A DNA stretch of 58,424 bases from Candidatus Nealsonbacteria bacterium (GCA_030643485.1 DAOWLG010000038.1:1-58424), one strand, 5' to 3'; counted from the stretch's first letter, positions 9,637-33,294 are shown. The notes: generated by a model from the sequence alone, not told the origin. A program made the numbers and translations.

Positions 9637-9693
9637 GTTTCTTTCTGCGAAGCGGAAACTCATAGTTCATAAAAAAATAGGAGGTGAAAAAAA

Positions 9694-9831
9694 ATGAAAA
9701 GAAAAATAAACATATTATCTCTAGTTGTGTTGCATTCATTCCCCAACGAAAACCTTATTACGCCTGTTGGAAAAAAGACAGAAAAACAAAAAAAGGAAAG
9801 CGAAAAACTGGAAACACCTAAAAAAGAATAA
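9694..9831 (+). CDS. Candidate 45-aa ORF with a strong Shine-Dalgarno sequence
   Basis: AGGAGGTG lies 7-8 nt upstream of ATG 9694. Product MKRKINILSLVVLHSFPNENLITPVGKKTEKQKKESEKLETPKKE. Followed by a hairpin plus T-run at 9854-9888. Confidence 0.3.
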   Translation: MKRKINILSLVVLHSFPNENLITPVGKKTEKQKKESEKLETPKKE

Positions 9832-19771: not shown

Positions 19772-20023
19772 ATGGCGATAACTAAATCAGCGAAAAAGGC
19801 ATTACGCCAAAATATAAGGCATAAAAAAAGAAACTTAATTTACAAAAATAAAATGAAAGGGCTTGTAAAACAGGTCAAATCTTTTATTAAAGAAAAGAAA
19901 ATAAAAGAGGCAAAAGAATTATTGCCTCAGGTCTATAAAATCCTGGATAAATCCGCAAAAATAGGAATAATTAAGAAAAACACTGCGTCAAGAAAAAAAT
20001 CTCGTCTGGCTAAATCTCTGTAA
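19772..20023 (+). CDS. rpsT: 30S ribosomal protein S20
   Basis: MAITKSAKKALRQNIRHKKRN..., small and basic, with typical S20 N-terminus and length. Confidence 0.9.
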   Translation: MAITKSAKKALRQNIRHKKRNLIYKNKMKGLVKQVKSFIKEKKIKEAKELLPQVYKILDKSAKIGIIKKNTASRKKSRLAKSL

Positions 20024-20987
20024 TCAACATATCTATTGCCATAATCGGGTCAACGCGCCCTGTTTTTATATCTCGGTCTACCTTGAATAATTTCTGGTAG
20101 ATTTTTTTTAGAACATCAAGCCCAAACTTTTGAGCCTGATAACAACTTTTTTGCGCAACATAAGGATGCATTCCCGGAATTTTTACTCTACCAAAGGACG
20201 AGGTTCTTTGGTTGTTCGGCTGAACTCCCTCAGAATGACTTGAAAGGTAGTCCTTAACTAAAAGCAAATTTCTAAATTGGAAATTTATCATAGAAAGAAG
20301 ATACAAGGGTGCGTCTCCTTTCTCCAAATGTTTATGAATTAAAAAAATCGCGCGTTTCTTGTCTTTTTGCGCGATAGCGTCAATGGTCTTAAAAATATCT
20401 GTTTCAATTCTTGGAGCCACTAAAAGTTCAATATCCTTTAATACTACGAGAACACTTCTCGTAGTATTAAATTTATAAGTGCATAATTTTTTGATTTCCT
20501 GAGATAATTGCCAGAGGTTATTACCCACGAAATTTATCAATTGTTGTATTGCTTGATTTTCAATTTTTGAATTATATTTTTCAAATTCTTTTTTAATCCA
20601 ATTTTCCAATTCTTTATTTGATAGAGTGTCAAACTCTTGGCATTTTGCTGTTTTTTTCAAAAACTTAAACAAAGAATCCGCTTTATTAACTTTATCTTTT
20701 TCATAAAAAAGGATAACATCTTCTGTGTTCTCTATTTTTTTTAAGACATCTAAAATTTTTTCCTTAAATTCAGAATTTAAGAAAATATTTTTTAGAACTA
20801 TTAATTTTTTTTCTTTGAACATTGAGACACTTTGAATGTTATGCTCAAATTCTTCAAAGCCTGAATTTTGGCAGTCATAATATCTTAAATTCAATCCAGT
20901 TTGATGGATTTTTTTGTAGCGCTCAATAATCTCTTGTAATTTCTTAAGAGAGCGATATGTATCTTTGCCATAGAGAAAAAGAAACAT
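20010..20987 (-). CDS. holA: DNA polymerase III delta subunit (probable)
   Basis: 325 aa. The N-terminal LFLYGKDTYR... and overall helical C-terminal pattern fit delta-subunit proteins of small genomes. No catalytic motif available to confirm. Confidence 0.65.
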   Translation of the reverse strand: MFLFLYGKDTYRSLKKLQEIIERYKKIHQTGLNLRYYDCQNSGFEEFEHNIQSVSMFKEKKLIVLKNIFLNSEFKEKILDVLKKIENTEDVILFYEKDKVNKADSLFKFLKKTAKCQEFDTLSNKELENWIKKEFEKYNSKIENQAIQQLINFVGNNLWQLSQEIKKLCTYKFNTTRSVLVVLKDIELLVAPRIETDIFKTIDAIAQKDKKRAIFLIHKHLEKGDAPLYLLSMINFQFRNLLLVKDYLSSHSEGVQPNNQRTSSFGRVKIPGMHPYVAQKSCYQAQKFGLDVLKKIYQKLFKVDRDIKTGRVDPIMAIDMLITEI

Positions 20988-20988
20988 T

Positions 20989-21354
20989 CTATTTCAAAAC
21001 TGTTTTGATTTTTTCAATTATTTCATTAGGAGTAAAATGAGCCTTAATTAGATAGTCATTTGCTCCTAAATTTATTCCTTTTTCTATGTCTTCTTTTTGG
21101 CCAAGATTAGATAAAATAATTACCGGCAATTGAGATAAACTCGGATCTTTTTTCATCTGAGATAAAACCTCAAAACCATCTATCCCCGGCAAAATAAGGT
21201 CAAGCAAAACCAAATCAGGTTTCTCTGTTTTTATTTTTTTTATTCCTTCTTCGCCGTCAATTGCCTCAAAAACCTCATAACTTTCTTTTGTAAGTTTTTG
21301 AGCAATTAACTCTCTAAGAAATTTATCGTCTTCAATGATTAATATTTTTTGCAT
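20989..21354 (-). CDS. Single-domain response regulator (REC only)
   Basis: MQKILIIEDDKF, DLVLLDLILPGIDGFEVL, PVIILSNLG, ANDYLIKA. Start set to the ATG 1 nt after the kinase stop. Confidence 0.9.
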   Translation of the reverse strand: MQKILIIEDDKFLRELIAQKLTKESYEVFEAIDGEEGIKKIKTEKPDLVLLDLILPGIDGFEVLSQMKKDPSLSQLPVIILSNLGQKEDIEKGINLGANDYLIKAHFTPNEIIEKIKTVLK

Positions 21355-21355
21355 A

Positions 21356-22396
21356 TTAACAAGGCAGGGTAAAACAAAAAGTAGAACCCTTTCCTTCTTG
21401 AGATTCAAACCAAATTCGACCTTTATGCGCTTCAATTATATTTTTAGCAATAAACAAACCCAGTCCCGTTCCTTCTGTCTCCATTCTAATTATATTAGCC
21501 CCTCTAAAAAATTTAGTAAAGACACGAAATTGCTGGTCAGTAGGTATGCCTACTCCGCTGTCATACACGGAGACCTTGATTTCTTTTTTGTTTTTTCCTT
21601 TTTCCTTACATTGTAAAAAAACTATCATTTTCCCTTTTGAAGAAGTATATCTTATAGCGTTTTCAATAATATTTCTAATTGCTAATTCTATCTTTTCTTT
21701 ATCTATATTAACCTCTGGCAATTTTTTCGCTGCAATAAACTTAAAATTTATTTTTTTTCTTTTTATTTCTTCTTTATATGAACTTATTATATCTCTACAT
21801 ATTTTTTCAATGTCGTAAAAATCTTTTTTATACACATGCCTACCTTCCTCAATCTGAGTTATATTCAAAAGATCATTTATTAAGCCAATCATCCTTTCGT
21901 TGCTTCTATATGTCTTTTCTATAAATTTTTTTTGCTCTTTGGTAACTTCTCCTAAATCACCGTCTAAAAGCATTCTTAAAGTCCACTTAATAGCAGATAG
22001 AGGAGTAGGCAACTGATGAGCAGTGATAGAAACAAATTCTGTTTTCATCTGTTCTATTCTTTTTTCTCTGGTTATGTCGCGTAAAATTACCAAAGTTCCT
22101 ATCTTCTTTTTTTGTTCAAATAAAGGAACCGCGGAAACCTCCAAAACCAAATTTTCAGCAACAGTCAGTTCTTGCATTGGCGCGCTTTTTATTTTTTTTC
22201 CTAAAATTTTAATTAATCTTTTAAGATTTCCAAAGCCCGCAAGTTCTAAAACTGGCTTACCTATTATCTCCTTTTCATTAACTCTTAAAAACTCTTGTGC
22301 GCGAGGGTTTATTAAAGAAAGATTCCTTTGTTTATCAAAAACCAAAATTCCATCAGTAAGATTTGCGATAATAGGTAATGTTTTCCTTTTTATCAT
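21356..22396 (-). CDS. Cytoplasmic PAS-domain sensor histidine kinase
   Basis: H box [16 protein letters not shown] box [10 protein letters not shown] boxes YDSGVGIP and [16 protein letters not shown]. The start overlaps the upstream stop in an ATGA arrangement. Confidence 0.9.
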
Positions 22397-23082
22397 ATAT
22401 CTATATCCAGATTCCTCTGCGAGACACTGGTTTGAATTTTTATTCCCGCGTCTCCTGATGTTCCACCTGCTTTTTCTATGTCTAAAAAGATAGTCACTTT
22501 TGGCTGGTCATTGTCGCCTACCCCATCACCGGAGATATCTATTTCAAAAGCGTTTATTTCAAGATTAGATGAAGTCAAAGGGGTTTCTTGCCCGCTTATT
22601 TTTTTCATTAAACACTTATCTGTTGTATTCCAATAAAATTCTTGACACTCATTATGGTAATTTATAAATTTTATACCTCTTCCGCCTTTAGTCAATTGAT
22701 AGTTATAGTCGCAACCTTTATCTATATTATCTAAACATGGATCTTCTATTAAACAATTTTGCTCTTTTTGAGCCATGCGCAGACTCCGAGACATATACTC
22801 CATTACATAACTAGCTTGGTCTAAAACCTCTTGAGTGTTTAAGATTTTTGACTGGCTCTTTATCATAAAATTAAAAACACCCAAAATTCCTGCTATGGCT
22901 ATGGAAAAAATCATTACGGAAATCAAAAGTTCCACAAGGGTAAATCCGCTTACTGTCAATTTGTCCCGCTTTTTTCTCCGTCTTCTTGTTAATACCCTTC
23001 TTCCTCCTTTTGTTTTTGTCCGCGCCAAAAACCCGTGTGTCCTTTTCCTTTTTCTTTTTTTGGGCTGATAAGTAATAGACAT
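22393..23082 (-). CDS. rpmH: In-frame fusion of ribosomal protein L34 (residues 1-45) with a GspJ/PilW-like pseudopilin (from G46|F47)
   Basis: [45 protein letters not shown] is full-length L34. It is followed without a stop by [20 protein letters not shown], the prepilin cleavage/methylation motif with E+5. Confidence 0.8.
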
Positions 23083-23151
23083 ATTTATTTAGTGAACTTG
23101 GTAAATTTCCTATCAAATACTGTGGAAAGTCTCAACAATAAAACCTCTTCA

Positions 23152-23266
23152 AAATTTTCAATTTTCAATGACCAATTTTCAATGAATTTTCAATGATTCA
23201 ATTTTCAATGAATAAAATTAATTAATTTGTTTGAAAATTGAAAATTGATAATTGATAATTGATTTT
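23152..23266. repeat. AT-rich palindromic element, copy 2 (inverted orientation)
   Basis: Its reverse complement matches copies 1 and 3 over the centre and right arm (CAAACAAATTAATTAATTTTATTCATTGAAAATTGAATCATTGAAAATTCATTGAAAATTGGTCATTGAAAATTGAAAAT). Confidence 0.85.
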
Positions 23267-23345
23267 AGTATCTTTATATTACCATAATTCAAGAAAAAAT
23301 ACAATTGCCTGTATAAGAATATTAATGAAAGATGTTCTGCACAAG

Positions 23346-23365
23346 TTTTCCACATCTTATCAACA
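23346..23365. promoter_or_regulatory. Two DnaA-box-like 9-mers upstream of dnaA
   Basis: TTTTCCACA (23346-23354) and TTATCAACA (23357-23365). Each has one mismatch to TTATCCACA. Confidence 0.5.
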
Positions 23366-23387
23366 AAACAAAATATTTGTATTTATT

Positions 23388-23415
23388 TTGCGTTTTATTT
23401 TGAAAGTGATATAAT
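23388..23415 (+). promoter_or_regulatory. dnaA promoter (extended -10)
   Basis: TTGCGT (23388-23393), 16-nt spacer, TGA-TATAAT (-10 at 23410-23415), 12 nt before the ATG. Confidence 0.45.
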
Positions 23416-23427
23416 AGAAAATGAAAT

Positions 23428-24780
23428 ATGACAAAAGAAGAATTATGGCAGGCAGTGCTTGCTCAAATTCAATTTAATATCTCCTCGGCAAATTTTGCTA
23501 CCTGGTTCAAAAACACTAAAATCTTAGTCAAAAAAGGGAAACAAATTATTATCTCTGTTCCTAACAATTTTTCTAAAGAATGGCTGGAAAATAAATACAA
23601 TAAAATTATCCTGAAAATTTTACGGGAGATGGACCAAGAGATAAAAGAAATCACATACGAAGTTTCCAAAACAGCGACAAAAACAAAAGAGCAAATTATG
23701 TCGCGCAACGGCTATCAAGATGACGGACAATTAGAATTCCCTGAATTTAAGGTTAATAAAATCACTAACCTTAACCCCCGCTATGCTTTTGAAAATTTCG
23801 TGGTTGGGGCTTACAACGAAGTCCCTCATGCGGCTATTTCCGCGGTTGTGAAAAACCCTGGTAAAATTTATAATCCGCTTTTTATTTATGGCGGAGTAGG
23901 ATTGGGAAAGACCCACTTAATCCAAGCCGCTGGCAATAAAATAGCTGAATCTTTTCCTAAAAAGAAAATCAGATATATTCCATCGGAAAAATTTATCTCC
24001 GGGGTGGTTAATTCTATTAGAAATCATAGTATTAGTAGTTTAAAATCAGACTATAAAAAAATTGATGTTTTAATTATGGACGATGTTCAATTTTTAGCAA
24101 GTAAAGAAAAAACTCAAGAAGAATTTTTCCATATCTTTAACACTTTATATGAAAAAAACAAACAGATAATTATTTCTTCAGACAGACCCCCAAGGGCGAT
24201 TTCTCCAATCGCAGAGCGGTTAAGGTCGCGGTTTGAAGGAGGGATGATAGCTGATATTGGCTTACCTGATATTGAAACAAGGATGGCAATCTTAAAAGTC
24301 AAATCACAGGAAAGAGGGGTGAATCTACCTGAAGAAACATCGGAATATATTGCTACTAATATCCAGAAAAATGTCCGCGAATTAGAAGGAGCAGTAAATC
24401 GTATCGCTGTTTATCAAAAATTAGATAACCAAAATTTTGACACTAACGCGATTAAATCAATACTTAAAAATATAATCACAAACCCTCAAAAACCGGTAAG
24501 TGTTAAAAAAATAATTCAAACCGTGGCAGAGTTTTACGATATAAAAGAAAAAGAAATTTTTGCTATTAGCCGAAGAAAAGAGATTGTAAAGCCCCGACAA
24601 ATTGCTATGTATCTTTTAAGAAATATATTAAGTTGTTCTTTCCCTTATATCGGAAGAAAATTTCAAGGAAAAGACCATACTACCACTATTTATGCTTTTG
24701 GGAAAATTTCTAAAGAACTGGAAAATAATGAGATATTAAATGAAGAAATAAATTTAATAAAACAAAGATTATGTAGTTAA
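23428..24780 (+). CDS. dnaA: Chromosomal replication initiator DnaA
   Basis: GGVGLGKTHL (Walker A), VLIMDDVQF (Walker B). C-terminal DNA-binding domain IAMYLLR...GRKFQGKDHTTTIYA. Confidence 0.97.
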   Translation: MTKEELWQAVLAQIQFNISSANFATWFKNTKILVKKGKQIIISVPNNFSKEWLENKYNKIILKILREMDQEIKEITYEVSKTATKTKEQIMSRNGYQDDGQLEFPEFKVNKITNLNPRYAFENFVVGAYNEVPHAAISAVVKNPGKIYNPLFIYGGVGLGKTHLIQAAGNKIAESFPKKKIRYIPSEKFISGVVNSIRNHSISSLKSDYKKIDVLIMDDVQFLASKEKTQEEFFHIFNTLYEKNKQIIISSDRPPRAISPIAERLRSRFEGGMIADIGLPDIETRMAILKVKSQERGVNLPEETSEYIATNIQKNVRELEGAVNRIAVYQKLDNQNFDTNAIKSILKNIITNPQKPVSVKKIIQTVAEFYDIKEKEIFAISRRKEIVKPRQIAMYLLRNILSCSFPYIGRKFQGKDHTTTIYAFGKISKELENNEILNEEINLIKQRLCS

Positions 24781-24797
24781 TAATAGATAGTAAATTC

Positions 24798-24874
24798 AGT
24801 GGATAATAAGTGGAAAAAATATAAAAATAAAAATCAAAGAAATAATTAGATATTTATCAACAATATTTTCCACA
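24798..24874. promoter_or_regulatory. DnaA-box cluster in the dnaA-dnaN spacer (oriC candidate)
   Basis: Reverse-strand TTATCCACT (24798-24806) and TTTTCCACT (24809-24817). Forward TTATCAACA (24854-24862) and TTTTCCACA (24866-24874). Very AT-rich surroundings. Confidence 0.5.
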
Positions 24875-24931
24875 TCTTATTATATCTTAATTTAATAATA
24901 AGACACAGGAAAAATTGTTTGCTTAATAATA

Positions 24932-26056
24932 ATGAAAATAATAATATTAAAAGATAATATTAAGAAAGGTTTAGAAATCATAGAAAAAATAACAGGAAAA
25001 AATTTAACCCTTCCTGTATTAAATAATGTTTTAATTTCAACAGAGAAAAATCTTTTAAGGTTATCTGGTACTGATTTAGAAATAGGAGTAAAATATTGGA
25101 CGCTATGTAAGACAGAAAAAGAAGGAGAAATAATAATTCCGGCTAAATTTGCGTCTAATTTTATTAATTCGTTACCACAAGAAAAAATATATTTGGAAGT
25201 AAAAAATAAAATTTTACATATTGAATGTAAAAATTATAAAGCAAAAATTAAAACCGAATCTACTCAGGATTTTCCTATAATTCCTAAAATAGAAACAGAG
25301 GATTTTATAAGTGTAAATAATTACCCTTTTTGTCAAGGACTTGAGCAGGTAGTAGAATTTACTACGCCAAATCAGGCAAGGCTGGAACTTTCAGGTGTAT
25401 ATTTTAATTTCCAAAAAAATAAATTAAAATTAGTTGCCACAGATAGTTTTCGCTTGGCTGAAAAAACACTTTATTTTGAAAAAGAATTAGATAAAGAATA
25501 TTCTTTTATTATTCCTCAAAGAACAGTTCAAATGATAATTAATATTTTCTCAGAAAAAGAAGGAAAAATAAGAATTTATCCCTCATCTAATCAGGTTCAA
25601 TTTGAGACATTTTTCCCGGAAATTTCCCATCCCGAAGTTCAGGTTATTTCCCGTTTAATTGAAGGCGAATACCCGAATTATCAGGAAATTATTCCTGAAA
25701 ACTATGAAACCCAAGTTTTATTATCAAAGGATAAATTTTTGAATCAAATTAAAACCGCTTCCCTTTTTAGTGAGAAAAGTAATGAAGTAAAAATAAAAGT
25801 TGTTCCTAAAGAACAAAAAATAGAAATTTTTTCTCAAAGTCCGGAATTAGGCGAAAATTATTCTGATTTAGAAGGAAAAATAACCGGAAAAGAAGTGAGT
25901 GTATCTTTTAATTGGAAATATCTATTAGAAGGGCTTTCTCGCTTGAAAAGTTCTGAAATAATAATTGGGTTAAACGGAGAAGAAGGTCCTGTAGTATTAA
26001 AGCCAAAAGGTGATGATACATATTTCTATATTGTAATGCCAATTAAGGGAAATTAA
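24932..26056 (+). CDS. dnaN: DNA polymerase III beta sliding clamp
   Basis: 374 aa directly after dnaA. Contains LSGTDLEIG, VATDSFRLAEK, a C-terminal MPIK, and three-domain length. Confidence 0.95.
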   Translation: MKIIILKDNIKKGLEIIEKITGKNLTLPVLNNVLISTEKNLLRLSGTDLEIGVKYWTLCKTEKEGEIIIPAKFASNFINSLPQEKIYLEVKNKILHIECKNYKAKIKTESTQDFPIIPKIETEDFISVNNYPFCQGLEQVVEFTTPNQARLELSGVYFNFQKNKLKLVATDSFRLAEKTLYFEKELDKEYSFIIPQRTVQMIINIFSEKEGKIRIYPSSNQVQFETFFPEISHPEVQVISRLIEGEYPNYQEIIPENYETQVLLSKDKFLNQIKTASLFSEKSNEVKIKVVPKEQKIEIFSQSPELGENYSDLEGKITGKEVSVSFNWKYLLEGLSRLKSSEIIIGLNGEEGPVVLKPKGDDTYFYIVMPIKGN

Positions 26057-27975
26057 AAATTAATTTTCAACAGCGCTTTTGACATAAATTCCTTCCAGAT
26101 TGGGCCCGCGATCATTACTGATGGTTTTTTCTTCATTGGATAATTATTATTATTTCCTGCCCAAACACCGCAAACAAGAGAAGGAGTATAACCTACTGCC
26201 CAAGCGTCTTTATATTCCTGAGTAGTGCCGGTTTTCGCGGCAACCTTATATCCTTTTATATGCAGAGACGAATTAAACCCAAACATAGGCGCTCTGGCTT
26301 CATTATCTGATAATATGTCATTCAAAAGTTGTGTTTCTTTTATCCCTAATACCCTTTTGGGTGTTTTTTTATTTTCTTCAATAATATTCCCTTGATTATC
26401 GGTGATTTTAAGAATACTTACAGGAGGAACCTTTAAGCCCTGTGCGGCGAAAACGCCGTAAGCCGAGGTAATATCCAATAATTTTACTTCCCAGCCACCT
26501 AATACAATAGAAGGTCCATAAGGCGGTGATAAGGTAGTAATACCTAAATTTTTTGCTGTTTGTGCGCTATCTTCTAAACCGGCTAAATATAATAAAACCT
26601 TTACAGAAGCAACATTTATTGATTGAGCCAAGGCACTTCTTAAAGAAATAGGTCCTCTAAATAGCCCGTCGTAATTTTTAGGGGTATACTCTTTATTCCC
26701 CCAGACCCCAAAATTTGTTTCTTCATCCACGACTATTGTTTTATCGTTATATCCTTTCTTAAAAGCGGTTACATAAGCAAATGGTTTGAACGCGGAACCC
26801 GGCTGTCTGCCAATCCCGTAGATTGCCACATTAACTTTTGGTTCAAATAAACAATTTTTTCCGTTCGTGCATCCTTTTGGAAACGACTCGCCAAAATAAT
26901 CCTTGGACCCGACCATTGCCAATATCTCGCCGGTTTTTGGTTGGATAGCCACTAACGACGCATTATACGCTTTATATTTTATATTTGTTTCAGAACCTTT
27001 TTCAACTGCTTCTTTTGCTATTTGCTGGAGTTCCCAATCCAAAGAAGTCCAAACCTTTAACCCTTTTTCTTTTAAGAAATTCTCGCCGTATTTTGTTTCT
27101 AAATATTGTTTAACGTAAAGAGTAAAATGAGGCGCTTTTATTTCCACTAAATTCGGGGCAAAAATGATTTCCTGTTGTTTTAATTCTTCTGCCTGTTCTT
27201 TTGATATGTATCTCTGTTTTGCCATTCTGTTTAGAATATTATTTTTGTGGCTTATTAGTTTCTCTTTGTGCTTACCATAAGGAGAAAGATAACTCGGCGC
27301 CTGGATTAGAGAAGCCAGTATAGCCGCTTCTGGCAGGGAAATTTCTGAAACAGATTTCTTAAAATAGGTTTGGGTTGCGGCTTCCACCCCATAAGCGTTA
27401 CTGCCAAACGGGACTTGATTCACATACCATTCCAAGATTTGGTCTTTTGAATATCTTCTTTCCAATTCTATTGTTAAAATAATTTCCCTTATTTTTCTCT
27501 CAATGGTTTTTTTTCTGGTTAAGAAAGTTGACCTGATAAGTTGTTGAGTGATAGTGGACCCGCCCTGTTTTGGTTTTCTTAATTTCAAGTCAACCATTAT
27601 AGCGCGCATTGTCCCCTTAAAATCAATTCCAGGATGTTTGTAAAAATTTTTATCTTCCGCAACAATGATTGCCTGCTTCAGATGTTCCGGAACCGCGCTT
27701 AAAGGAATCAAGGTTCTTTTTTCTTCCCCGTATATTTTATACAAAAGAACCTCACCGGTTCTGTCATAAATTTTTGTTGATTGGGTAAATTGTTTTTCAG
27801 TGAATTTTTCTGGCCGTGGTAGGTCTTTGGCGTAATAGATAAACAAACCAAGGATAATAAACCCAAGCAATAAAATACACATTCCCGTGATTTTCCAAAA
27901 CCCCTTTACTAACCCAATCCCTGCACGCAGGAGCGGGGCGGTAAGGGGTTGTCTATAAAGTTTTCTGCGAGCCAT
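26053..27975 (-). CDS. Bifunctional penicillin-binding protein 1A (GT51 transglycosylase plus transpeptidase)
   Basis: EDKNFYKHPGID, GGSTITQQL, RKIREI (GT51). GSAFKPF (SxxK) and KTGTT (transpeptidase). N-terminal TM anchor. Confidence 0.93.
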   Translation of the reverse strand: MARRKLYRQPLTAPLLRAGIGLVKGFWKITGMCILLLGFIILGLFIYYAKDLPRPEKFTEKQFTQSTKIYDRTGEVLLYKIYGEEKRTLIPLSAVPEHLKQAIIVAEDKNFYKHPGIDFKGTMRAIMVDLKLRKPKQGGSTITQQLIRSTFLTRKKTIERKIREIILTIELERRYSKDQILEWYVNQVPFGSNAYGVEAATQTYFKKSVSEISLPEAAILASLIQAPSYLSPYGKHKEKLISHKNNILNRMAKQRYISKEQAEELKQQEIIFAPNLVEIKAPHFTLYVKQYLETKYGENFLKEKGLKVWTSLDWELQQIAKEAVEKGSETNIKYKAYNASLVAIQPKTGEILAMVGSKDYFGESFPKGCTNGKNCLFEPKVNVAIYGIGRQPGSAFKPFAYVTAFKKGYNDKTIVVDEETNFGVWGNKEYTPKNYDGLFRGPISLRSALAQSINVASVKVLLYLAGLEDSAQTAKNLGITTLSPPYGPSIVLGGWEVKLLDITSAYGVFAAQGLKVPPVSILKITDNQGNIIEENKKTPKRVLGIKETQLLNDILSDNEARAPMFGFNSSLHIKGYKVAAKTGTTQEYKDAWAVGYTPSLVCGVWAGNNNNYPMKKKPSVMIAGPIWKEFMSKALLKINF

Positions 27976-28022
27976 AAATCAATTATAGGTTATCAACGAT
28001 AACTTATCAATGATTAGTAATC

Positions 28023-28046
28023 AAAAACCCCCGTTCGGGGGTTTTT
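28023..28046. terminator. Bidirectional hairpin terminator
   Basis: AAAAA-CCCCC-GTTC-GGGGG-TTTTT. Confidence 0.65.
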
Positions 28047-28055
28047 GAGGTGAGT

Positions 28056-28208
28056 CTACAGTCCTGGAGTTTCTGATGGTGCCGCGGCTGGGGTTTCTTC
28101 TTCGTTATTTTCTTCTTCTTTATTCTCTTCTTCTTTAACTTCTCCTCCATCACCTTCGTTATCTCCTATGTCGTTGACAATAGGACTAATAATTTTTTCG
28201 TAAATCAT
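28056..28208 (-). CDS. Candidate 50-aa highly acidic small protein
   Basis: ATG at 28208, TAG at 28056-28058. Product MIYEKIISPIVNDIGDNEGDGGEVKEEENKEEENNEEETPAAAPSETPGL. A terminator follows directly. Below the ORF-track cut-off. Confidence 0.35.
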   Translation of the reverse strand: MIYEKIISPIVNDIGDNEGDGGEVKEEENKEEENNEEETPAAAPSETPGL

Positions 28209-28261
28209 AATTTTTAATTTTTTTACATCTATTCAATTGTTTTCGACCTTTTCCCACACCT

Positions 28262-28342
28262 ATTGTGGATATGCGAATTTGTGAAACAAATTCGCCTTGT
28301 CGCCTTTGGCGACTAATCCACAATAGGTGTGGGATTTCCGTC
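28262..28342. repeat. CCCACACCTA three-way-junction element, copy B
   Basis: P1 CCCACACCTATTGTGGAT/ATCCACAATAGGTGTGGG. P2 GCGAATTTGT-GAA-ACAAATTCGC. P3 GTCGCC-TTT-GGCGAC. Confidence 0.85.
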
Positions 28343-28394
28343 CGATACAATCCCTATTATATTTTTCCAAACAGATTTGTCAACCCCATTGGCA

Positions 28395-28423
28395 CCTAAT
28401 TTTGGTTTTAGACCAAAATTAGG
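28395..28423. repeat. 12-bp-arm palindrome
   Basis: CCTAATTTTGGT-TTTAG-ACCAAAATTAGG. Confidence 0.8.
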
Positions 28424-28451
28424 AATTTCTAATTTCTAATTTCTAATTTCT
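28424..28451. repeat. Tandem heptamer AATTTCT x4
   Basis: AATTTCTAATTTCTAATTTCTAATTTCT. Confidence 0.85.
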
Positions 28452-28480
28452 ATTAAATTTTTAATTCTTTAATTTCTAAA

Positions 28481-28531
28481 CATTGAAAATTGAATCATTG
28501 AAAATTTAATGAAAATTGAAAATTGAAAATT
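28481..28531. repeat. Partial copy (right arm only) of the AT-rich GAAAATTGAAAAT element
   Basis: CATTGAAAATTGAATCATTGAAAATTTAATGAAAATTGAAAATTGAAAATT. Confidence 0.75.
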
Positions 28532-28570
28532 CCCATTTGAATTTGGCAATTGTTGCCAAATTCAAATGGG
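28532..28570. repeat. Perfect 18-bp-arm palindrome abutting the pilin promoter
   Basis: CCCATTTGAATTTGGCAA-TTG-TTGCCAAATTCAAATGGG. Confidence 0.85.
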
Positions 28571-28574
28571 GAAG

Positions 28575-28611
28575 TTATCCACAGGTTGACATTTCTAAAA
28601 TGTGCTATAAT
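28575..28611 (+). promoter_or_regulatory. Consensus DnaA box fused to a promoter upstream of the pilin leader
   Basis: TTATCCACA (28575-28583), TTGACA (28586-28591), TGC-TATAAT (-10 at 28606-28611; the spacer is only about 14 nt by my count). The block ATTTCTAAAATGTGCTATAATGAAAATGT is repeated at 57721-57749. Confidence 0.4.
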
Positions 28612-28634
28612 GAAAATGTAAAAAAAATATAAAA

Positions 28635-28706
28635 CCCCACACCTAATAAGGACAAGGTGCCGAAGGCGATAAGCGCGAATTTAGTATATCCTGAAAAAGT
28701 AGGGGG
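28635..28706. repeat. CCCCACACCTA element, degenerate copy D
   Basis: The 5' arm CCCCACACCTAATAAGGAC is intact. The 3' arm is decayed (TATCCTGAAAAAGTAGGGGG). Confidence 0.6.
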
Positions 28707-28709
28707 AAA

Positions 28710-28801
28710 CCCCACACCTATTCAGGATATGCGAATTTGTTTCACAAATTCGCTGTTCATCAAGCCTTTATGGCTTGATGGAATCCTGAATAGGTGTGGG
28801 G
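28710..28801. repeat. CCCCACACCTA three-way-junction element, copy C
   Basis: P1 CCCCACACCTATTCAGGAT/ATCCTGAATAGGTGTGGGG. P2 GCGAATTTGT-TTC-ACAAATTCGC. P3 is replaced by CATCAAGCC-TTTAT-GGCTTGATG. Confidence 0.85.
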
Positions 28802-28847
28802 AAAGGTCGGCGATTAGATTACAATTTTATCTAACATCTAATTAAAT

Positions 28848-29288
28848 ATGTTACAATTATTTACTAAAAAACATAAAGGTTTCACATTGATTGAATTACT
28901 GGTAGTTATTTCCATTATCGGCATCCTATCCTCCATTGTCGTAGTTTCAATGGGTTCAGCAAAGGGAAAAGCGAGAGACGCGAGAAGGCAATCTGATATG
29001 AGACAGATAGGCACTGCTTGCGAGTTGTTTTATACCGACGGCAGCGTATATCCGACATCCGAAACTTATGGCGGACTGTCCATCGGCGATTATATGAGCT
29101 CGCTTCCTGTCCCTCAATCAGGCGATACTTATACATGGGAAGACAACCTTACACCTTCGGTTCCTCAAAAATTTTGTATTTGGGTTTTAGCAGAAGACGA
29201 TACAACTTATTTCGCGTCTTCGCATAAAGGAAGTAGAATGGATTTGATTGTCAGTCCTGCTACAAAAGGCACTGATTGCTGGGATTAA
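28848..29288 (+). CDS. Type IV pilin (PilA-like major pilin candidate)
   Basis: Leader MLQLFTKKHKG|FTLIELLVVISIIGIL, with the conserved E+5. C-terminal Cys pair. Confidence 0.85.
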   Translation: MLQLFTKKHKGFTLIELLVVISIIGILSSIVVVSMGSAKGKARDARRQSDMRQIGTACELFYTDGSVYPTSETYGGLSIGDYMSSLPVPQSGDTYTWEDNLTPSVPQKFCIWVLAEDDTTYFASSHKGSRMDLIVSPATKGTDCWD

Positions 29289-29322
29289 GAAAAATCAAGG
29301 AAATCGTAATAATCATTTCCCA

Positions 29323-29350
29323 AATCCCCGTTGTTTAGGCGGGGATTTTG
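29323..29350 (+). terminator. Intrinsic terminator after the pilin gene
   Basis: AATCCCCG (29323-29330), loop, CGGGGATT (29340-29347), TT. Confidence 0.6.
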
Positions 29351-29361
29351 ATTGGGGGTTG

Positions 29362-29433
29362 CCCCACACCTAATAAGGACTGACTTCGTCAATTTTAGAC
29401 GCCTTCGGCGTCTTGTCCTTATTAGGTGTGGGG
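29362..29433. repeat. CCCCACACCTA element, variant copy E
   Basis: P1 CCCCACACCTAATAAGGAC/GTCCTTATTAGGTGTGGGG encloses the hairpin AGACGCC-TTC-GGCGTCT. Confidence 0.85.
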
Positions 29434-29470
29434 TTGAGTTTTTGGGGGAATTAGTTTATTATGAGATATA

Positions 29471-30319
29471 ATGGATTTATTTTTTTATTTTTTTATATTT
29501 TTATTTGGATTGTGTATTGGCAGTTTTTTGAATTGCGTAATTTATTTGCTTGAAAGTAAAGAGAGACCTGTTCGCGGCCAAACGCGGCGAACAGGCATCC
29601 TGGGACGTTCCTTTTGCCCTAATTGCGGCCATATTTTATCCTGGAAAGATTTAATTCCTGTCTTAAGTTTTTTAATTTTGAAAGCAAAGTGCCGCTATTG
29701 CCAGAAACCTATTTCTTTACAATATCCAATAGTAGAAATAGCAACAGGGTTGCTGTTTCTACTAATTTTCAATTTTCAATTTTCAATTTTCAATCAATTT
29801 TCAATTTTCAATTTTCAAAGCATCATAGCCTTCTTTTTTCTGCTATTGATTACTTGTTTCCTGATAATTATCTTTGTTTATGATTTCAAACATTATATTA
29901 TTCCCGACAAGGTGATTTATCCTGCAATAGTTATCACCTTTTTTTATCATCTAACCAGCCATTGGGATTTGGGACTTGGCTGGCCATTAGTTATTGGGAT
30001 TTGGGACTTCATATCGCCTGCGCTTCTCGCTTCAGGATTTTTTTTGTCTATTGTCCTTATCTCACGCGGAAAATGGATGGGCTTGGGCGATGTAGGGCTT
30101 GCTTTTTTAATGGGTCTTTTACTTGGATTTCCTAATATCTTAGTAGCACTCTTCCTTGCGTTCTCAATTGGTGCTATAATAGGAACAGGGCTGATAATTA
30201 AACACAAGAAGACCCTGAAAAGCGAAGTGCCGTTTGGGCCATTTTTAGTAATCGGCACGTTTATTGCAATGTTCTGGGGAGAAAAAATTGTAAATTGGTA
30301 TCTAAATTTTGCCATATAA
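29471..30319 (+). CDS. pilD: Prepilin peptidase (A24 family, PilD-like)
   Basis: CPNCGH...CRYCQ cysteine pairs, LQYPIVEIATGLLF, multiple TM segments, WMGLGDVGL and VPFGPFLV catalytic-Asp contexts. Confidence 0.9.
   Translation: MDLFFYFFIFLFGLCIGSFLNCVIYLLESKERPVRGQTRRTGILGRSFCPNCGHILSWKDLIPVLSFLILKAKCRYCQKPISLQYPIVEIATGLLFLLIFNFQFSIFNQFSIFNFQSIIAFFFLLLITCFLIIIFVYDFKHYIIPDKVIYPAIVITFFYHLTSHWDLGLGWPLVIGIWDFISPALLASGFFLSIVLISRGKWMGLGDVGLAFLMGLLLGFPNILVALFLAFSIGAIIGTGLIIKHKKTLKSEVPFGPFLVIGTFIAMFWGEKIVNWYLNFAI
29567..29595. repeat. Palindrome inside the pilD coding sequence
   Basis: CCTGTTCGC (29567-29575) ... GCGAACAGG (29587-29595), encoding RPVRGQTRRTG. The arm sequence is related to the GACCCGTTCTCG palindrome in and after tatD. 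Confidence 0.75.
29765..29818. repeat. ATTTTCAA octamer tandem tract inside the pilD coding sequence
   Basis: 54 nt of (ATTTTCAA)n, in frame, encoding IFNFQFSIFNQFSIFNFQ. Same sequence family as the intergenic GAAAATTGAAAAT elements. Confidence 0.85.
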
Positions 30320-30322
30320 AAA

Positions 30323-30871
30323 ATGTTAAAATATAAGGGATTTACTTTAATTGAGATTTTAGTAGTTATGGGCATTATTGTTTTTTTCACAGGTTTAGTT
30401 TTGGTAAATTACAAAACAGGCGGAAATAAGTTTGCATTGCAGAGGTCTGTTAATAAATTAGCGCAGGACATAAGAAGAGCGGAACAGATGGCGATGTCAA
30501 TGAAAAAATTTTCTTGTTCATCAGGAGAATTAAGAGGATATGGAATAAAATTTGATAAAACTTTGACTACTTATAACTATAAAATTTGGGCAAAATGTAA
30601 TTCTAGTAATGAAGAAACAACGATTGATGGAGCAATAGAAAAAGGAGTAAGTATAAGCGAGTTAAATTCAAAAAAAAGCGGAAGTCCGGATGCCTTCTAT
30701 GATATTTTTTTTGTATTTTTTTATCCGCCTGATCCTAATGTAGATTTTGAAGACATAGATGGTAATAATATTGACGCAGATATTGTAGAAATAATTTTAG
30801 AAGTAAAAGATAGTTCTTTTCCTTCTATGTCTATAACCATTAATAAAGCCGGGCTAGTGGAGATAGAATAA
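30323..30871 (+). CDS. Minor pilin/pseudopilin (GspH/FimT-like)
   Basis: MLKYKG|FTLIEILVVMGIIVFF prepilin motif. Confidence 0.8.
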   Translation: MLKYKGFTLIEILVVMGIIVFFTGLVLVNYKTGGNKFALQRSVNKLAQDIRRAEQMAMSMKKFSCSSGELRGYGIKFDKTLTTYNYKIWAKCNSSNEETTIDGAIEKGVSISELNSKKSGSPDAFYDIFFVFFYPPDPNVDFEDIDGNNIDADIVEIILEVKDSSFPSMSITINKAGLVEIE

Positions 30872-30879
30872 AATTTTCA

Positions 30880-31434
30880 ATGAAAATTAAAAAAATAAAA
30901 AAATCTAATAATATCGGTTTTACCTTACTTGAAGTGATGATTGCTATTTTTTTTCTCACTGTTGGTATAGGGGGTGCTTTTACGGTTATTCAAAGGACAG
31001 TTGGCTTGTCTTATATTAACGCTTCGCGATTAGTTGCTGCAAATTTGGCGCAGGAAGGGATTGAAATCGTGAGAAATATCAGGGATACTAATTGGATAGA
31101 GGGAGAGGATTGGGACAAAGGAATTGGTATTCAATATACAGGTACTCCATTAGATTCAGTATATTATGAAGTGCAATACAATGATAAAGAAGCGGACATA
31201 GTCGTTTGCGTAACGCCTTGCGACTATAACGATATGAGATTTTTGAATATTGACGAAGATAGTTTTTATAGTTACAAGGATTCAGGAATATATACCACAA
31301 CAAAATTCAAGAGAAAAATCGCTATTTCAGATAAAGATAGCGACAAATTAAAAGTAACAGTAATAGTAGAATGGCAAGAGCGTGGAACAACTCATAATTT
31401 TACGGCTCAAGAATATTTGTATAATTGGAAATGA
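30880..31434 (+). CDS. Minor pilin/pseudopilin (PilV/GspI-like)
   Basis: ...SNNIG|FTLLEVMIAIFFLTVGIGG prepilin motif. Confidence 0.8.
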   Translation: MKIKKIKKSNNIGFTLLEVMIAIFFLTVGIGGAFTVIQRTVGLSYINASRLVAANLAQEGIEIVRNIRDTNWIEGEDWDKGIGIQYTGTPLDSVYYEVQYNDKEADIVVCVTPCDYNDMRFLNIDEDSFYSYKDSGIYTTTKFKRKIAISDKDSDKLKVTVIVEWQERGTTHNFTAQEYLYNWK

Positions 31435-31457
31435 GCAAAAAGGAATGTGTTATCTAA
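31431..31457 (+). other. Orphan 8-codon ORF (MSKKECVI) that looks like a severed prepilin leader
   Basis: The ATG overlaps the preceding TGA (ATGA coupling). MSKK is a typical prepilin leader, but the reading frame then runs into the rnpA start region and stops. Confidence 0.5.
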
Positions 31458-31782
31458 ACAAAATCGTCTTATTAAGAAAAAGGATTTTGAAAAAGTTTTT
31501 AAGGAAGGCAAAGGATATAGAAAGGATTTTTTATTTTTGAAGACAAATAAAAATGATTTGGATTTTACTAGATTTGGCTTTATAGTGAGTAAAAAAATTT
31601 CCAATAAAGCAGTGGCGCGGAATAAGATAAAAAGACAACTAAGAGAAATAGTCCGTAAGAAAATACCGGAAATAAAAAAAGGGATAGATGTTATTGTAAT
31701 TGCAATGTCCGGGATAGAAATTCAAAGTTTTCAGGAGATAGAAAAAACAATAGATGAAATTTTTAATATTAAAAATAATTAA
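31447..31782 (+). CDS. rnpA: RNase P protein component
   Basis: GTG start. [37 protein letters not shown]. Confidence 0.9.
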
Positions 31783-31960
31783 ATTTTATCAGGGGTTTAT
31801 TTCACCTTATTTGGGTAGCCATTGTCGGTTTTATCCGAGTTGTTCGGAATATTGTTATTTGGCAATTCAGAAATACGGACTTCTTAAAGGATTATTTTTA
31901 GGGACAAAAAGAATTCTTAAGTGCCATCCGTGGAATAAAGGAGGAATAGATACCCCTTAA
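31754..31960 (+). CDS. yidD: Membrane protein insertion efficiency factor YidD
   Basis: [19 protein letters not shown]...[17 protein letters not shown]. Confidence 0.9.
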
Positions 31961-32091
31961 TTTTCAATTATCAATTTTCAATTATCAATCAATTATCAAA
32001 TTCCAATTTTCAAACAAATTAATTAATTTTATTCATTGAAAATTGAATCATTGAAAATTCATTGAAAATTGGTTATTGAAAATTGAAAATT
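31961..32091. repeat. AT-rich palindromic element, copy 3
   Basis: Differs from copy 1 (19581-19711) by about 1 nt. Occupies the yidD-yidC spacer and the first codons of the maximal yidC ORF. Confidence 0.9.
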
Positions 32092-32840
32092 TTTGCATTG
32101 TGTTTGAGATTTTAATTTCTTTTTTTGATATTGTTTTATATAAGCCATTATTCAATGGTTTGATTTTATTGTACCAGTATTTGCCGGGTCAGGACTTTGG
32201 GATAGCCGTGATTGTCTTGACTGTTTCCATAAAAATAGTATTATATCCTTTAGGAGCAAAAAGCATTAAAATGCAAAAAGCATTGTCTGAACTTCAGCCA
32301 AAGATGAAAGAAATTCAGGAGAAATTTAAGCAGGATAAGGAAAAACAGGCAAAGGCGATGATGGAACTTTATCAAAAAGAAAAGATTAATCCCCTTTCCG
32401 GATGTTTGCCCTTATTAGTGCAACTGCCAATTTTAATTGCTCTTTATAGGGTATTTTGGAAAGGGCTGCAACCGGAACATATGGTTTATCTTTACAGTTT
32501 TGTTCCTTCCCCCGGAGTAATTAATTCTACTTTTTTGGGAATAATTGATTTAGCAGTGCCTTGTATTGCTTTAGCGTTTTTAGCAGGGATTCTTCAGTTT
32601 TTTCAGACCAAAATGATGATGCCGCACTTTTCCAAAAAGAGCGGCGGCGCAAAAAAGAAAGACCAGATGGGGCAATTTTCAGATATGATGCAAAAACAAA
32701 TGCTTTACTTTTTTCCGGTTTTCACGGTTATGATCCTATGGACGCTCCCTTCTGCTATTGGATTATACTGGATTGTTTTTACTCTATTCGCTATCATCCA
32801 GCAGCATTTTACCTTGGGAACATCTAAACAAAATGATTAA
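32076..32840 (+). CDS. yidC: Membrane protein insertase YidC (short form). The true start is probably downstream, for example GTG 32100.
   Basis: KMQKALSELQPKMKEIQEKFKQDKEKQAKAMMELYQKEKINPLSGCLPLLVQLPILIALY. Confidence 0.9.
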   Translation: MKIENFCIVFEILISFFDIVLYKPLFNGLILLYQYLPGQDFGIAVIVLTVSIKIVLYPLGAKSIKMQKALSELQPKMKEIQEKFKQDKEKQAKAMMELYQKEKINPLSGCLPLLVQLPILIALYRVFWKGLQPEHMVYLYSFVPSPGVINSTFLGIIDLAVPCIALAFLAGILQFFQTKMMMPHFSKKSGGAKKKDQMGQFSDMMQKQMLYFFPVFTVMILWTLPSAIGLYWIVFTLFAIIQQHFTLGTSKQND

Positions 32841-33294
32841 CAAAAAAGACTTAAAAACAATTGAAAAAATTACCAATGAGTTTTTTAAGAAAACCGGTTT
32901 TGAGATAGAGGTTGAAATAAAGCCGGGTCAGGACATAACTATTTTAATTGACTTAAAAATGGAAGAGCCACAGATTTTTATTGGAGAAGGCGGCAATACC
33001 TTGTCGGAGATTCAACGCTTATTAATAGCGATATTAAGAAGAAAAATTCCTAATATGTTTTACATTGATTTAGATATTCAGGACTATAAAAAGAAAAAAA
33101 ACGAATACTTAAAGGATTTGGCTCAATCCATAGCAGATGATGTGGCGCTGTACAAAAAAGAAAAAATCCTTTCCCCGATGTCGGCTTACGAGAGAAGGAT
33201 TATACATTTGGCATTAGAGGGAAGGCAAGATGTAATTTCAGAAAGCATTGGCGAGGGAATAGAAAGAAGAATAGTTATAAGGATACAGGAATAA
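32833..33294 (+). CDS. jag: Jag/KhpB-like RNA-binding protein (KH plus R3H)
   Basis: C-terminal R3H SPMSAYERRIIHLALEG. Canonical position after yidC. Start set to MINKKDL. Confidence 0.85.
   Translation: MINKKDLKTIEKITNEFFKKTGFEIEVEIKPGQDITILIDLKMEEPQIFIGEGGNTLSEIQRLLIAILRRKIPNMFYIDLDIQDYKKKKNEYLKDLAQSIADDVALYKKEKILSPMSAYERRIIHLALEGRQDVISESIGEGIERRIVIRIQE

Follow-up and report, generated by a model that had tools for sequence, protein, structure and literature searches.

Ribosomal protein L34 joined in frame to a pseudopilin at the end of an inverted origin-proximal segment in Candidatus Nealsonbacteria

The DNA analysed here is a stretch of 58,424 nucleotides (nt) from Candidatus Nealsonbacteria bacterium (GCA_030643485.1 DAOWLG010000038.1:1-58424), referred to below as the window. 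It contains a segment of about 8.5 kb that carries dnaA and dnaN and is inverted relative to the order found in most relatives. At the left end of this segment lies an uninterrupted open reading frame (ORF) in which ribosomal protein bL34 (gene rpmH) is continued by pp3, a pseudopilin of a pil locus. As read from the sequence, the main consequence of the rearrangement is an intact, conserved L34-pseudopilin gene with a predicted prepilin-peptidase site exactly at the joint. Residues 3-44 of the fusion match Pfam Ribosomal_L34 (PF00468) over 44 of 44 profile positions with an expectation value (E) of 1e-17, and residues 45-67 match Pfam N_methyl (PF07963; E 2e-05, 24.4 bits against a cutoff of 21.2). 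The fusion also passes the NCBIfam equivalog rpmH_bact (TIGR01030; 57.1 bits, cutoff 37.65) and the NCBIfam model IV_pilin_GFxxxE (TIGR02532; 21.1 bits, cutoff 16.3), and bL34 chains in the PDB match its L34 part with E 1e-12. The G(-1), F(+1) and E(+5) residues of the cleavage-methylation motif are all present, in the context VSG/FTLVELL (here and below a slash within a protein sequence marks the cleavage position).

Where the genes of relatives stop after LTV, the frame runs on without a stop for 185 codons past L34 codon 44, and the fused rpmH thus lacks the stop codon of a stand-alone L34 of 44-50 amino acids (aa). Its "leader" is 46 aa long, has a net charge of +19 and equals L34, against a family median of 13 aa (102 homologues, as annotated); the short, functionless basic leader of about 5-30 aa that is typical of prepilins is absent. 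An AlphaFold2 model of the fusion (mean predicted local distance difference test score, pLDDT, 82.8) consists of a helix at residues 49-102 (54 residues) and eight strands, with pLDDT >90 across most of residues 50-220. Residues 1-46 have no confident structure in this model, as expected for a protein that depends on rRNA. No PDB structure matched the model significantly in Foldseek (the best was the minor pilin 7ba2_B, E 0.12), so the pilin subtype is left undefined.

The features are collected in Table 1. The gene content of the segment given in a preliminary description, made from the sequence alone, was borne out by domain searches. The inverted block extends from about 22951 to about 31434-31446 and holds rpmH, the candidate origin region, dnaA, dnaN, the penicillin-binding protein gene PBP1, pilA, pilD, pp1 and pp2. 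The fused rpmH is still divergent from dnaA, but rnpA lies 8.4 kb off, behind pp2, and rpmH now heads a transcription unit of pilin, histidine kinase (HK), response regulator (RR) and holA genes. The gene for the prepilin peptidase PilD is 6.5 kb from the fusion; pilA, pilD, pp1 and pp2 stand together at 28848-31434.

Table 1. Features of the inverted segment and its flanks (window coordinates).
Feature	Position	Strand	Remarks
L34-pseudopilin fusion ORF	22393..23082	-	uninterrupted, 229 aa: bL34 aa 1-44, Ser45-Gly46, pp3 Phe47-Ile229
L34 moiety, codons 1-44	22951..23082	-	MSITYQ...KLTV; equals full L34 length of relatives
Joint AGC GGA TTT	22942..22950	-	Ser(-2) Gly(-1) / Phe(+1); predicted prepilin-peptidase site and site of the proposed secondary deletion
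Mature pseudopilin pp3 (predicted), stop codon included	22393..22941	-	FTLVE N-terminal helix, then beta-sheet domain
dnaA	23428..24780	+	within inverted block; Pfam Bac_DnaA E 3e-66
dnaN	24932..26056	+	within inverted block; domain search
Class A penicillin-binding protein PBP1	26053..27975	-	conserved dnaN neighbour in Patescibacteria
pilA, major-pilin-like	28848..29288	+	N_methyl E 9e-10; best NCBIfam gspG, 47.0 bits, below 88.85 cutoff
pilD, prepilin peptidase, intact	29471..30319	+	Pfam A24_N_bact E 3.5e-29, Peptidase_A24 E 1.9e-13
Pseudopilin pp1	30323..30871	+	Pfam/NCBIfam profiles
Pseudopilin pp2	30880..31434	+	final gene of inverted block; profiles; ends ...TGG AAA TGA
8-codon ORF MSKKECVI	31431..31457	+	most likely a chance ORF
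Right junction, spacer GCAAAAAGGAAT	31435..31446	+	12 nt between pp2 stop and rnpA GTG
rnpA	31447..31782	+	GTG start; now 3' of pp2, not of rpmH; Pfam Ribonuclease_P E 2.6e-28
yidD	31754..31960		after rnpA
yidC	32076..32840		after rnpA
jag	32758..33294		after rnpA
Histidine kinase HK	21356..22396	-	downstream of fusion, same strand (20010..22396)
Response regulator RR	20989..21435	-	downstream of fusion, same strand
holA	20010..20987	-	downstream of fusion, same strand
rpmH-dnaA intergenic region	23083..23427		candidate oriC or part of it; AT-rich AATTTTCAAT repeat arrays; promoter-like sites for both divergent genes

To establish the usual gene order, tblastn with the window proteins was run against 160 rpmH loci of Patescibacteria, half of them from GTDB species representatives and half from JGI metagenome contigs (80 each). 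About 150 of these 160 loci have the order PBP1(+) dnaN(-) dnaA(-), then rpmH(+) rnpA yidD yidC jag, which is the dnaA-rpmH-rnpA arrangement that had been proposed as ancestral; two further loci, those of the stand-alone L34 proteins P0244 and P0243, likewise have dnaA divergent from rpmH-rnpA. The genes pilD-pp1-pp2-pp3 are contiguous on one strand in relatives L005-L008, L095, L177 and L178, and in the canonical-order genome L042 pilA adjoins PBP1. Re-inversion of the segment therefore does what the preliminary description had claimed: it gives the canonical divergence of dnaA from rpmH-rnpA together with a contiguous pilD-pp1-pp2-pp3, and both orders are found among relatives. In a related member of the Parcubacteria (L035, JAGMDC010000007.1, 1-13700) the order is dnaN(+) PBP1(-) pilA(+) pilA(+) ... 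rpmH(+) rnpA, with a break between dnaA and rpmH, and the origin region appears to be rearrangement-prone in the group that includes this genome. Directly upstream of rpmH in the non-inverted L012, a tRNA-like stretch recognised by eye (9650-9830, possibly two tRNAs) and a pilM-pilN/O-like block replace dnaA.

At least four other samples have yielded independent assemblies with the gene order of the window. The identical fusion ORF and junction are present on an independently assembled Logan contig (L001), and a second lineage, P0002 with its variant P0241 (68% identical), has the same L34-SG/FTLVE joint in three further samples. In loci of the P0002 type, dnaA is again divergent on the upstream side, and HK-RR-holA come downstream, separated from the fusion by a single additional gene with a FIST domain; HK-RR-holA likewise come after the fusion of L002 and, in L015, after the unfused pp3. 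The right junction, pp2 followed by rnpA-yidD-yidC, is found in L009 (from the same sample as L002), L010 and L011, and the short contig L014 shows the junction as well. Two more distant Patescibacteria, L015 (MAG118, JAYELE010000023.1) and L096 (SDBU01002368.1), share the inverted order. The proposed inversion of about 8.5 kb is thus upheld, with ends within 10 nt of those first given. As the source is a metagenome-assembled contig, and AT-rich inverted repeat arrays lie at 23227-23260 and 31959-31992, one could suspect an assembly chimera or a mixed population with a flipping segment, in which one or both junctions would be artefactual or heterogeneous. But the junctions recur across assemblers and samples (L001-L004, L009-L011, L014) and in the diverged genomes L015 and L096, the repeats lie away from the junctions, and the segment has no recombinase gene. 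Because both junction types recur in independent assemblies, a chimera or flipping segment is excluded for practical purposes, its probability being close to nil; the inversion is, on this comparative evidence, genuine.

Regarding its age, a neighbour-joining tree of DnaA and DnaN (39 taxa, 816 columns, 200 bootstraps) places the window, L015 and L096 in one monophyletic group in 200 of 200 bootstraps, with the canonical-order L020 and L032 as sisters. L015 and L096 both have rpmH and pp3 as separate genes with 4 nt between them, and pp3 keeps its ATG and a full leader of 13-16 aa. The 44-aa rpmH of L015 ends ...ACA GTG TAA and is followed by tttt and ATG TTT..., the pp3 leader reading MFFCLNKDTNNKG/FTLIE; that of L096, also 44 aa, ends ...ACA GTT TGA and is followed by tcgt and ATG TTA..., with the leader MLIYFIKLMKKHPKKG/FTLIE. 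The L096 leader is clearly homologous to that of the non-inverted L005, MILSFIKKIKNTGNSG/FTLVE, where pp3 follows pp2 as TAA-tt-ATG. Since the rpmH stop and the pp3 leader are intact in L015 and L096, the original breaks would have fallen in intergenic spacers and not inside genes.

The simplest history would be a single inversion in the ancestor of the clade, with breaks in spacers of a few nucleotides and every gene left intact. We consider it highly probable that the inversion, of about 8.5 kb, took place in an ancestor common to this small clade of Patescibacteria; the breaks would have been in the rpmH/rnpA and pp2/pp3 spacers, each a few nucleotides long, and rpmH would have landed 4 nt upstream of pp3. 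The inversion is evidently a trait shared by the window, L096 and L015, not a recent event, and the present junction sequences are apparently not its breakpoints. The preliminary description had held that both junctions could be rebuilt to the nucleotide, with 1 nt of microhomology. This claim is not supported: the junctions were remodelled later, by a deletion on the left and an indel of 12 nt on the right. They contain no inverted repeats; AT-rich AATTTTCAAT arrays and GC-rich palindromes were seen in other places only. The 8-nt sequence TAATTATG occurs at the rpmH-rnpA joint of L016, L020 and L028 and at the pp2-pp3 joint of L005, and might, as inverted microhomology, have mediated the inversion; this stays speculative, given that the 4-nt spacers now seen in L015 and L096 are different.

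The in-frame fusion itself is most likely the product of a secondary deletion, later than the inversion. Three things present in L015 and L096 are missing from the window and from L002: the stop codon of rpmH, the spacer of 4 nt, and the whole leader apart from its last two codons. The size difference at the left junction is 40 nt to L015 and 49 nt to L096, both 1 mod 3, which is the shift needed to bring the rpmH and pp3 frames into register. The single ORF would accordingly have arisen, probably, when the ancestor shared by the window and L002 lineages lost about 40-49 nt, and L34 would thereby have come to occupy exactly the position of the prepilin leader, as L34(1-44)-Ser-Gly/Phe-Thr-Leu-Val-Glu...pp3. 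Ser45 is, by this alignment, the -2 residue of the leader (compare NSG in L005) and not part of L34.

A different origin had been put forward in the preliminary description, namely one recent inversion with its two breaks at a shared G, one within the 3' end of rpmH and one within the pp3 leader, which fused the two directly and left the head of the leader (MSKK) and the tail of L34 (ECVI and a stop) at the other junction. The arithmetic of both joins works, and the reading that an ATG at 31431 overlaps the TGA stop of pp2 and opens the 8-codon MSKKECVI frame is correct. ATGA start/stop overlaps are common in operons; the proposed ancestral pp3 start would be ATGAGCAAAAAGGGATTT, overlapping the pp2 stop, and the L096 leader ends ...AAA AAG GGA TTT ACC CTT, the same words as the proposed join. 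A 5-aa leader MSKKG also resembles short prepilin leaders such as that of the more distant orthologue P0003 (47% identity), which does start MSSKG/FTLVE; it has no counterpart in the nearest relatives, where leaders are 13-16 aa. L009 and L014 read TGG AAG TAA ATG TT(A/G) TCT, with the rnpA ATG directly after the pp2 stop and 12 nt less than in the window, and L015 reads TGG AAA TAG aaa ATG GAT ATG TTA. The orphan MSKK(ECVI) stretch is thus absent from L009, L014 and L015, which counts in part against the preliminary description on terms that it had set itself. The ATG at 31431 is merely the conserved last Lys codon of pp2 (AAA) plus its TGA stop.

The reciprocal in-frame fit had been called very unlikely by chance; with the ATG as such a by-product, the frame match is a 1-in-3 event, and a stop within 5 codons is expected at a G+C content of 32%. 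The 49-aa L34 ending LTVSECVI that the same history requires is found in no relative, and neither is its overlap with the rnpA start (0 overlaps in the 45 rpmH-rnpA loci listed, those with highest RnpA identity). In these 45 loci the rpmH stop comes right after codon 44 or one codon later, with about 0-110 nt to the rnpA ATG. L34 has 44 aa in 72 of the 80 GTDB representatives, most ending (L/I)(T/S)V, and in a word-indexed search with the proposed 49-aa L34 most of the matches listed, including nearly all the best-scoring ones, had 44 aa. The clade-mates L015 and L096 carry the inversion with rpmH and pp3 intact and separate, and a direct fusion would need either two independent inversions with near-identical ends or the regain of a stop, a start and a homologous leader of 13-16 aa. 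We therefore regard this single-step origin as very unlikely, and the MSKKECVI ORF is most likely neither a gene nor a demonstrable remnant of a leader or of an L34 tail. An ENA contig encodes a 164-aa protein (P0168) in which L34 and RnpA are joined in one frame (...KLTVQFQLMLPKENRL...), through loss of a stop codon or a sequencing error.

Selection on the fusion was measured in one pairwise comparison, of the window with L002, in which the L34 side has only 45 codons. These 45 codons show 11 synonymous differences and 1 amino-acid change, corresponding to nonsynonymous (dN) and synonymous (dS) divergences of 0.029 and 0.43 and a dN/dS of about 0.07; the ratio is about 0.13 for the pilin helix and about 0.27 for the globular part of the pilin. 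In all, 44 of 45 residues of the L34 part are identical, including the non-basic signatures TYQP, HGF and LTV, and the codon of Gly(-1) differs synonymously (GGA in the window, GGC in L002). Identity is 98% for L34, beside 91% for DnaA, 81% for RnpA and 60% for the pilin body. The low dN/dS of both halves points to their being kept by selection since the fusion formed, and we hold it highly likely that both are under purifying selection. Such persistent selection would in turn mean, very probably, that the L34 made from the fused gene is still needed.

No second rpmH was found by tblastn within the 58-kb window. Among the stand-alone L34 genes that come closest to it in the protein database, two (P0244, P0243) sit in canonical loci and so belong to other genomes, and L34 is present in all 160 relatives surveyed. 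It could nevertheless be that the fusion is real and L34 is not released from it, being supplied by another copy or dispensable, with the L34 part serving merely as a long basic leader or the uncleaved fusion being a decaying accident. Leaders mainly need positive charge and Gly(-1), the rpmH search was confined to the 58-kb window, and in Bacillus subtilis deletion of rpmH is tolerated with raised Mg2+. A leader needed for its charge only would, however, be less constrained than one in which 44 of 45 residues are kept across a dS of about 0.43, and the presence of L34 in every relative surveyed, with no second copy in the window, speaks against it being dispensable or supplied elsewhere. We consider an L34 that is not released unlikely.

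During the biogenesis of type IV pilins, the hydrophobic helix becomes anchored in the membrane while the basic leader remains cytoplasmic, and PilD cleaves behind Gly(-1) from the cytoplasmic side. The S-G/F-T-L-V-E joint of the fusion is a predicted textbook prepilin-peptidase site. We propose that the very basic L34 part (+19) would stay cytoplasmic while the pilin helix inserts in the membrane, and that the PilD of the same locus would cut after Gly46 to give a 46-aa L34 (...LTVSG) and a mature pseudopilin; we see the chances of this step as evenly balanced. The freed L34 would then serve ribosome assembly, and the mature pseudopilin would be normal. Solved bacterial (non-organellar) bL34 chains in ribosome structures have 37-53 aa, most of them 44-50, and several end in LTVS plus 1-3 residues; a predicted product of 46 aa would thus be of normal size. 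Many pp3 orthologues (P0005, P0009, P0011, P0028, P0044, P0059, P0065 and others) have Ser or Ala in place of Gly at -1 before FTLIE, which suggests that the prepilin peptidase of Patescibacteria may have a relaxed cleavage-site requirement.

Alternatively, the two proteins could be made separately from one mRNA, the pilin starting at the in-frame TTG of L34 codon 42 (MTVSG/F) and L34 being ended by recoding near the joint. The TTG is conserved in both fused lineages, and TGA and TAA in the +1 frame overlap codons 42-45. The TTG is constrained in any case by encoding a Leu of L34, and no convincing Shine-Dalgarno sequence is suitably placed before it. A shift to the +1 frame would end L34 short of LTV; neither a slippery nor a stimulatory element could be seen, and an Rfam scan of 19-34 kb gave no matches. 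Separate synthesis is in our view very improbable.

Several points weigh against an ancient inversion, a later deletion and release of L34 by PilD. The phylogeny is a simple neighbour-joining tree from two proteins. The full ancestral map, with the pil operon beside PBP1-dnaN-dnaA and pp3 attached, was not found on any single outgroup contig; it rests on combined loci, because the pp3 orthologues on long contigs showed no outgroup pil operon beside dnaA. A leader of 46 aa far exceeds the family median, and characterised prepilin leaders reach about 30 aa. It is odd that a minor pilin should be produced one-to-one with a ribosomal protein. The search for a second rpmH covered the 58 kb of the window. 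Finally, with a possible start at the TTG, the pilin output need not depend on the fusion, though L34 would not be freed in this way. Taking all this together, the sequence of inversion, deletion and PilD-mediated release is the best overall explanation, and we hold it somewhat more probable than the contrary. Its strongest form, that the only bL34 gene of the lineage is the leader of a type IV minor pilin and that PilD doubles as a ribosomal-protein maturation enzyme, is tentative, and we would put its chances a little below even.

The inverted segment likely includes oriC. Two 9-mers resembling DnaA boxes lie in the rpmH-dnaA spacer (23346 and 23357) and three such sites in the dnaA-dnaN spacer (24781-24931), and the clusters at 23346-23365, 24798-24874 and 28264-28583 are all inside the segment; over the whole window there are 26 such matches against 15.8 expected. 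The non-coding gap of 850 nt between PBP1 and pilA (28000-28847) has three DnaA-box-like sites, including a perfect TTATCCACA at 28575, and is an alternative oriC candidate. GC skew, whose analysis had been suggested at the outset, and AT skew change sign several times and track the coding strand over the whole window; they neither locate oriC nor date the inversion.

AT-rich AATTTTCAAT(GA) arrays occur at 23150-23265, 28430-28540, 29764-29820 and 31959-31999, the third inside the pilD ORF and the rest in intergenic spacers. The copies at 23227-23260 and 31959-31992 are mutually inverted (34 nt, 91%) and lie near, not at, the inversion ends. GC-rich palindromes built on CCCACACC...GGTGTGGG are present at 28244-28337, 28632-28673, 28783-28809 and 29400-29435 of the window and at 671-720 of L002. 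One 36-nt pair of them, 94% complementary, flanks pilA, and a similar hairpin adjoins the dnaA start of L002. They may represent REP-like or terminator-like sequences, belong to a small mobile element, or form the arms of a pilin cassette that can be inverted. Just left of ruvA-S20-holA, at 16373-18871, the window encodes an 832-aa protein with a ResIII/SWI2-SNF2 helicase core and a C-terminal TnsA-like/NERD nuclease domain.

Inversions near the origin are an ordinary kind of event in bacteria, where they give the "X-alignment" pattern between related genomes. As in these, the segment here holds dnaA, dnaN and candidate DnaA-box clusters, and the inversion is fixed in the clade. All genes in and around the segment except PBP1 still point away from the rpmH/dnaA divergence point, and PBP1 is the orientation exception in the canonical order too, so that co-orientation with replication would be kept. 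It differs in being only 8.5 kb long and strongly asymmetric, with ends about 0.14 and about 8.3 kb from the divergence point, and in having both breaks in spacers of a few nucleotides between tightly packed genes. All genes of the canonical rpmH-rnpA-yidD-yidC-jag operon are present and recognisable, but rpmH is cut off from rnpA, which follows a pseudopilin gene after a 12-nt spacer and has a GTG start. The locus thus offers a clean and datable case in which the very conserved rpmH-rnpA pair is split.

More unusual is the fate of L34, a universally conserved ribosomal protein that has survived, under strong purifying selection, as an extension added to the N terminus of a membrane pilin, with a predicted protease site exactly at the joint; the preliminary description had not drawn this consequence. 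A search for pp3 homologues in a set of 5.8 billion proteins gave 442; among the 120 best-scoring proteins listed, 118 have no L34 domain, and the only fusions are clusters P0001 and P0002. Residues 1-80 of the fusion, searched against 1.84 billion representative proteins, gave no further L34-prepilin fusion, and no report of an L34-pilin fusion was found in the literature. Longer "L34" proteins considered as further fusions turned out to be start miscalls, frameshift read-throughs or tandem artefacts. The fusion gene may be mishandled both by genome-completeness checks with rpmH among their markers and by pilin predictors tuned to short leaders.

With prepilins processed by PilD/GspO (A24 family) at a class III signal peptide, the fusion shares the motif, the hydrophobic helix, the basic leader and a peptidase gene at the same locus. 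Unlike in these, the leader is a complete, conserved ribosomal protein of 46 aa, and once cleaved it would be functional and not waste. If release by PilD is true, class III signal-peptide processing tolerates a structured, functional leader of 46 aa, and a seemingly lethal gene fusion can be neutral thanks to a protease that was already there and happens to cut in the right place. It would also tie ribosome supply to pilus-subunit synthesis in ultra-small episymbiotic bacteria, each L34 being made with one pilin subunit. L34 would then be the first bacterial ribosomal protein freed from a fusion with an unrelated membrane protein, and this would be the first case of a prepilin leader that has its own function.

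Other ribosomal proteins are also released by proteolysis, as in the eukaryotic ubiquitin-eL40 and ubiquitin-eS31 fusions. In Firmicutes, the N-terminal extension of bL27 is removed by the protease Prp (PMC9261936). The likeness is that the ribosomal protein would function only after an endoproteolytic cut of a longer product. By contrast, the ribosomal protein here stands at the N terminus and is joined to a membrane protein from an unrelated machine, and the proposed protease is a membrane aspartyl peptidase that is not dedicated to the ribosome. The fusion looks like a tolerated accident rather than an evolved maturation system.

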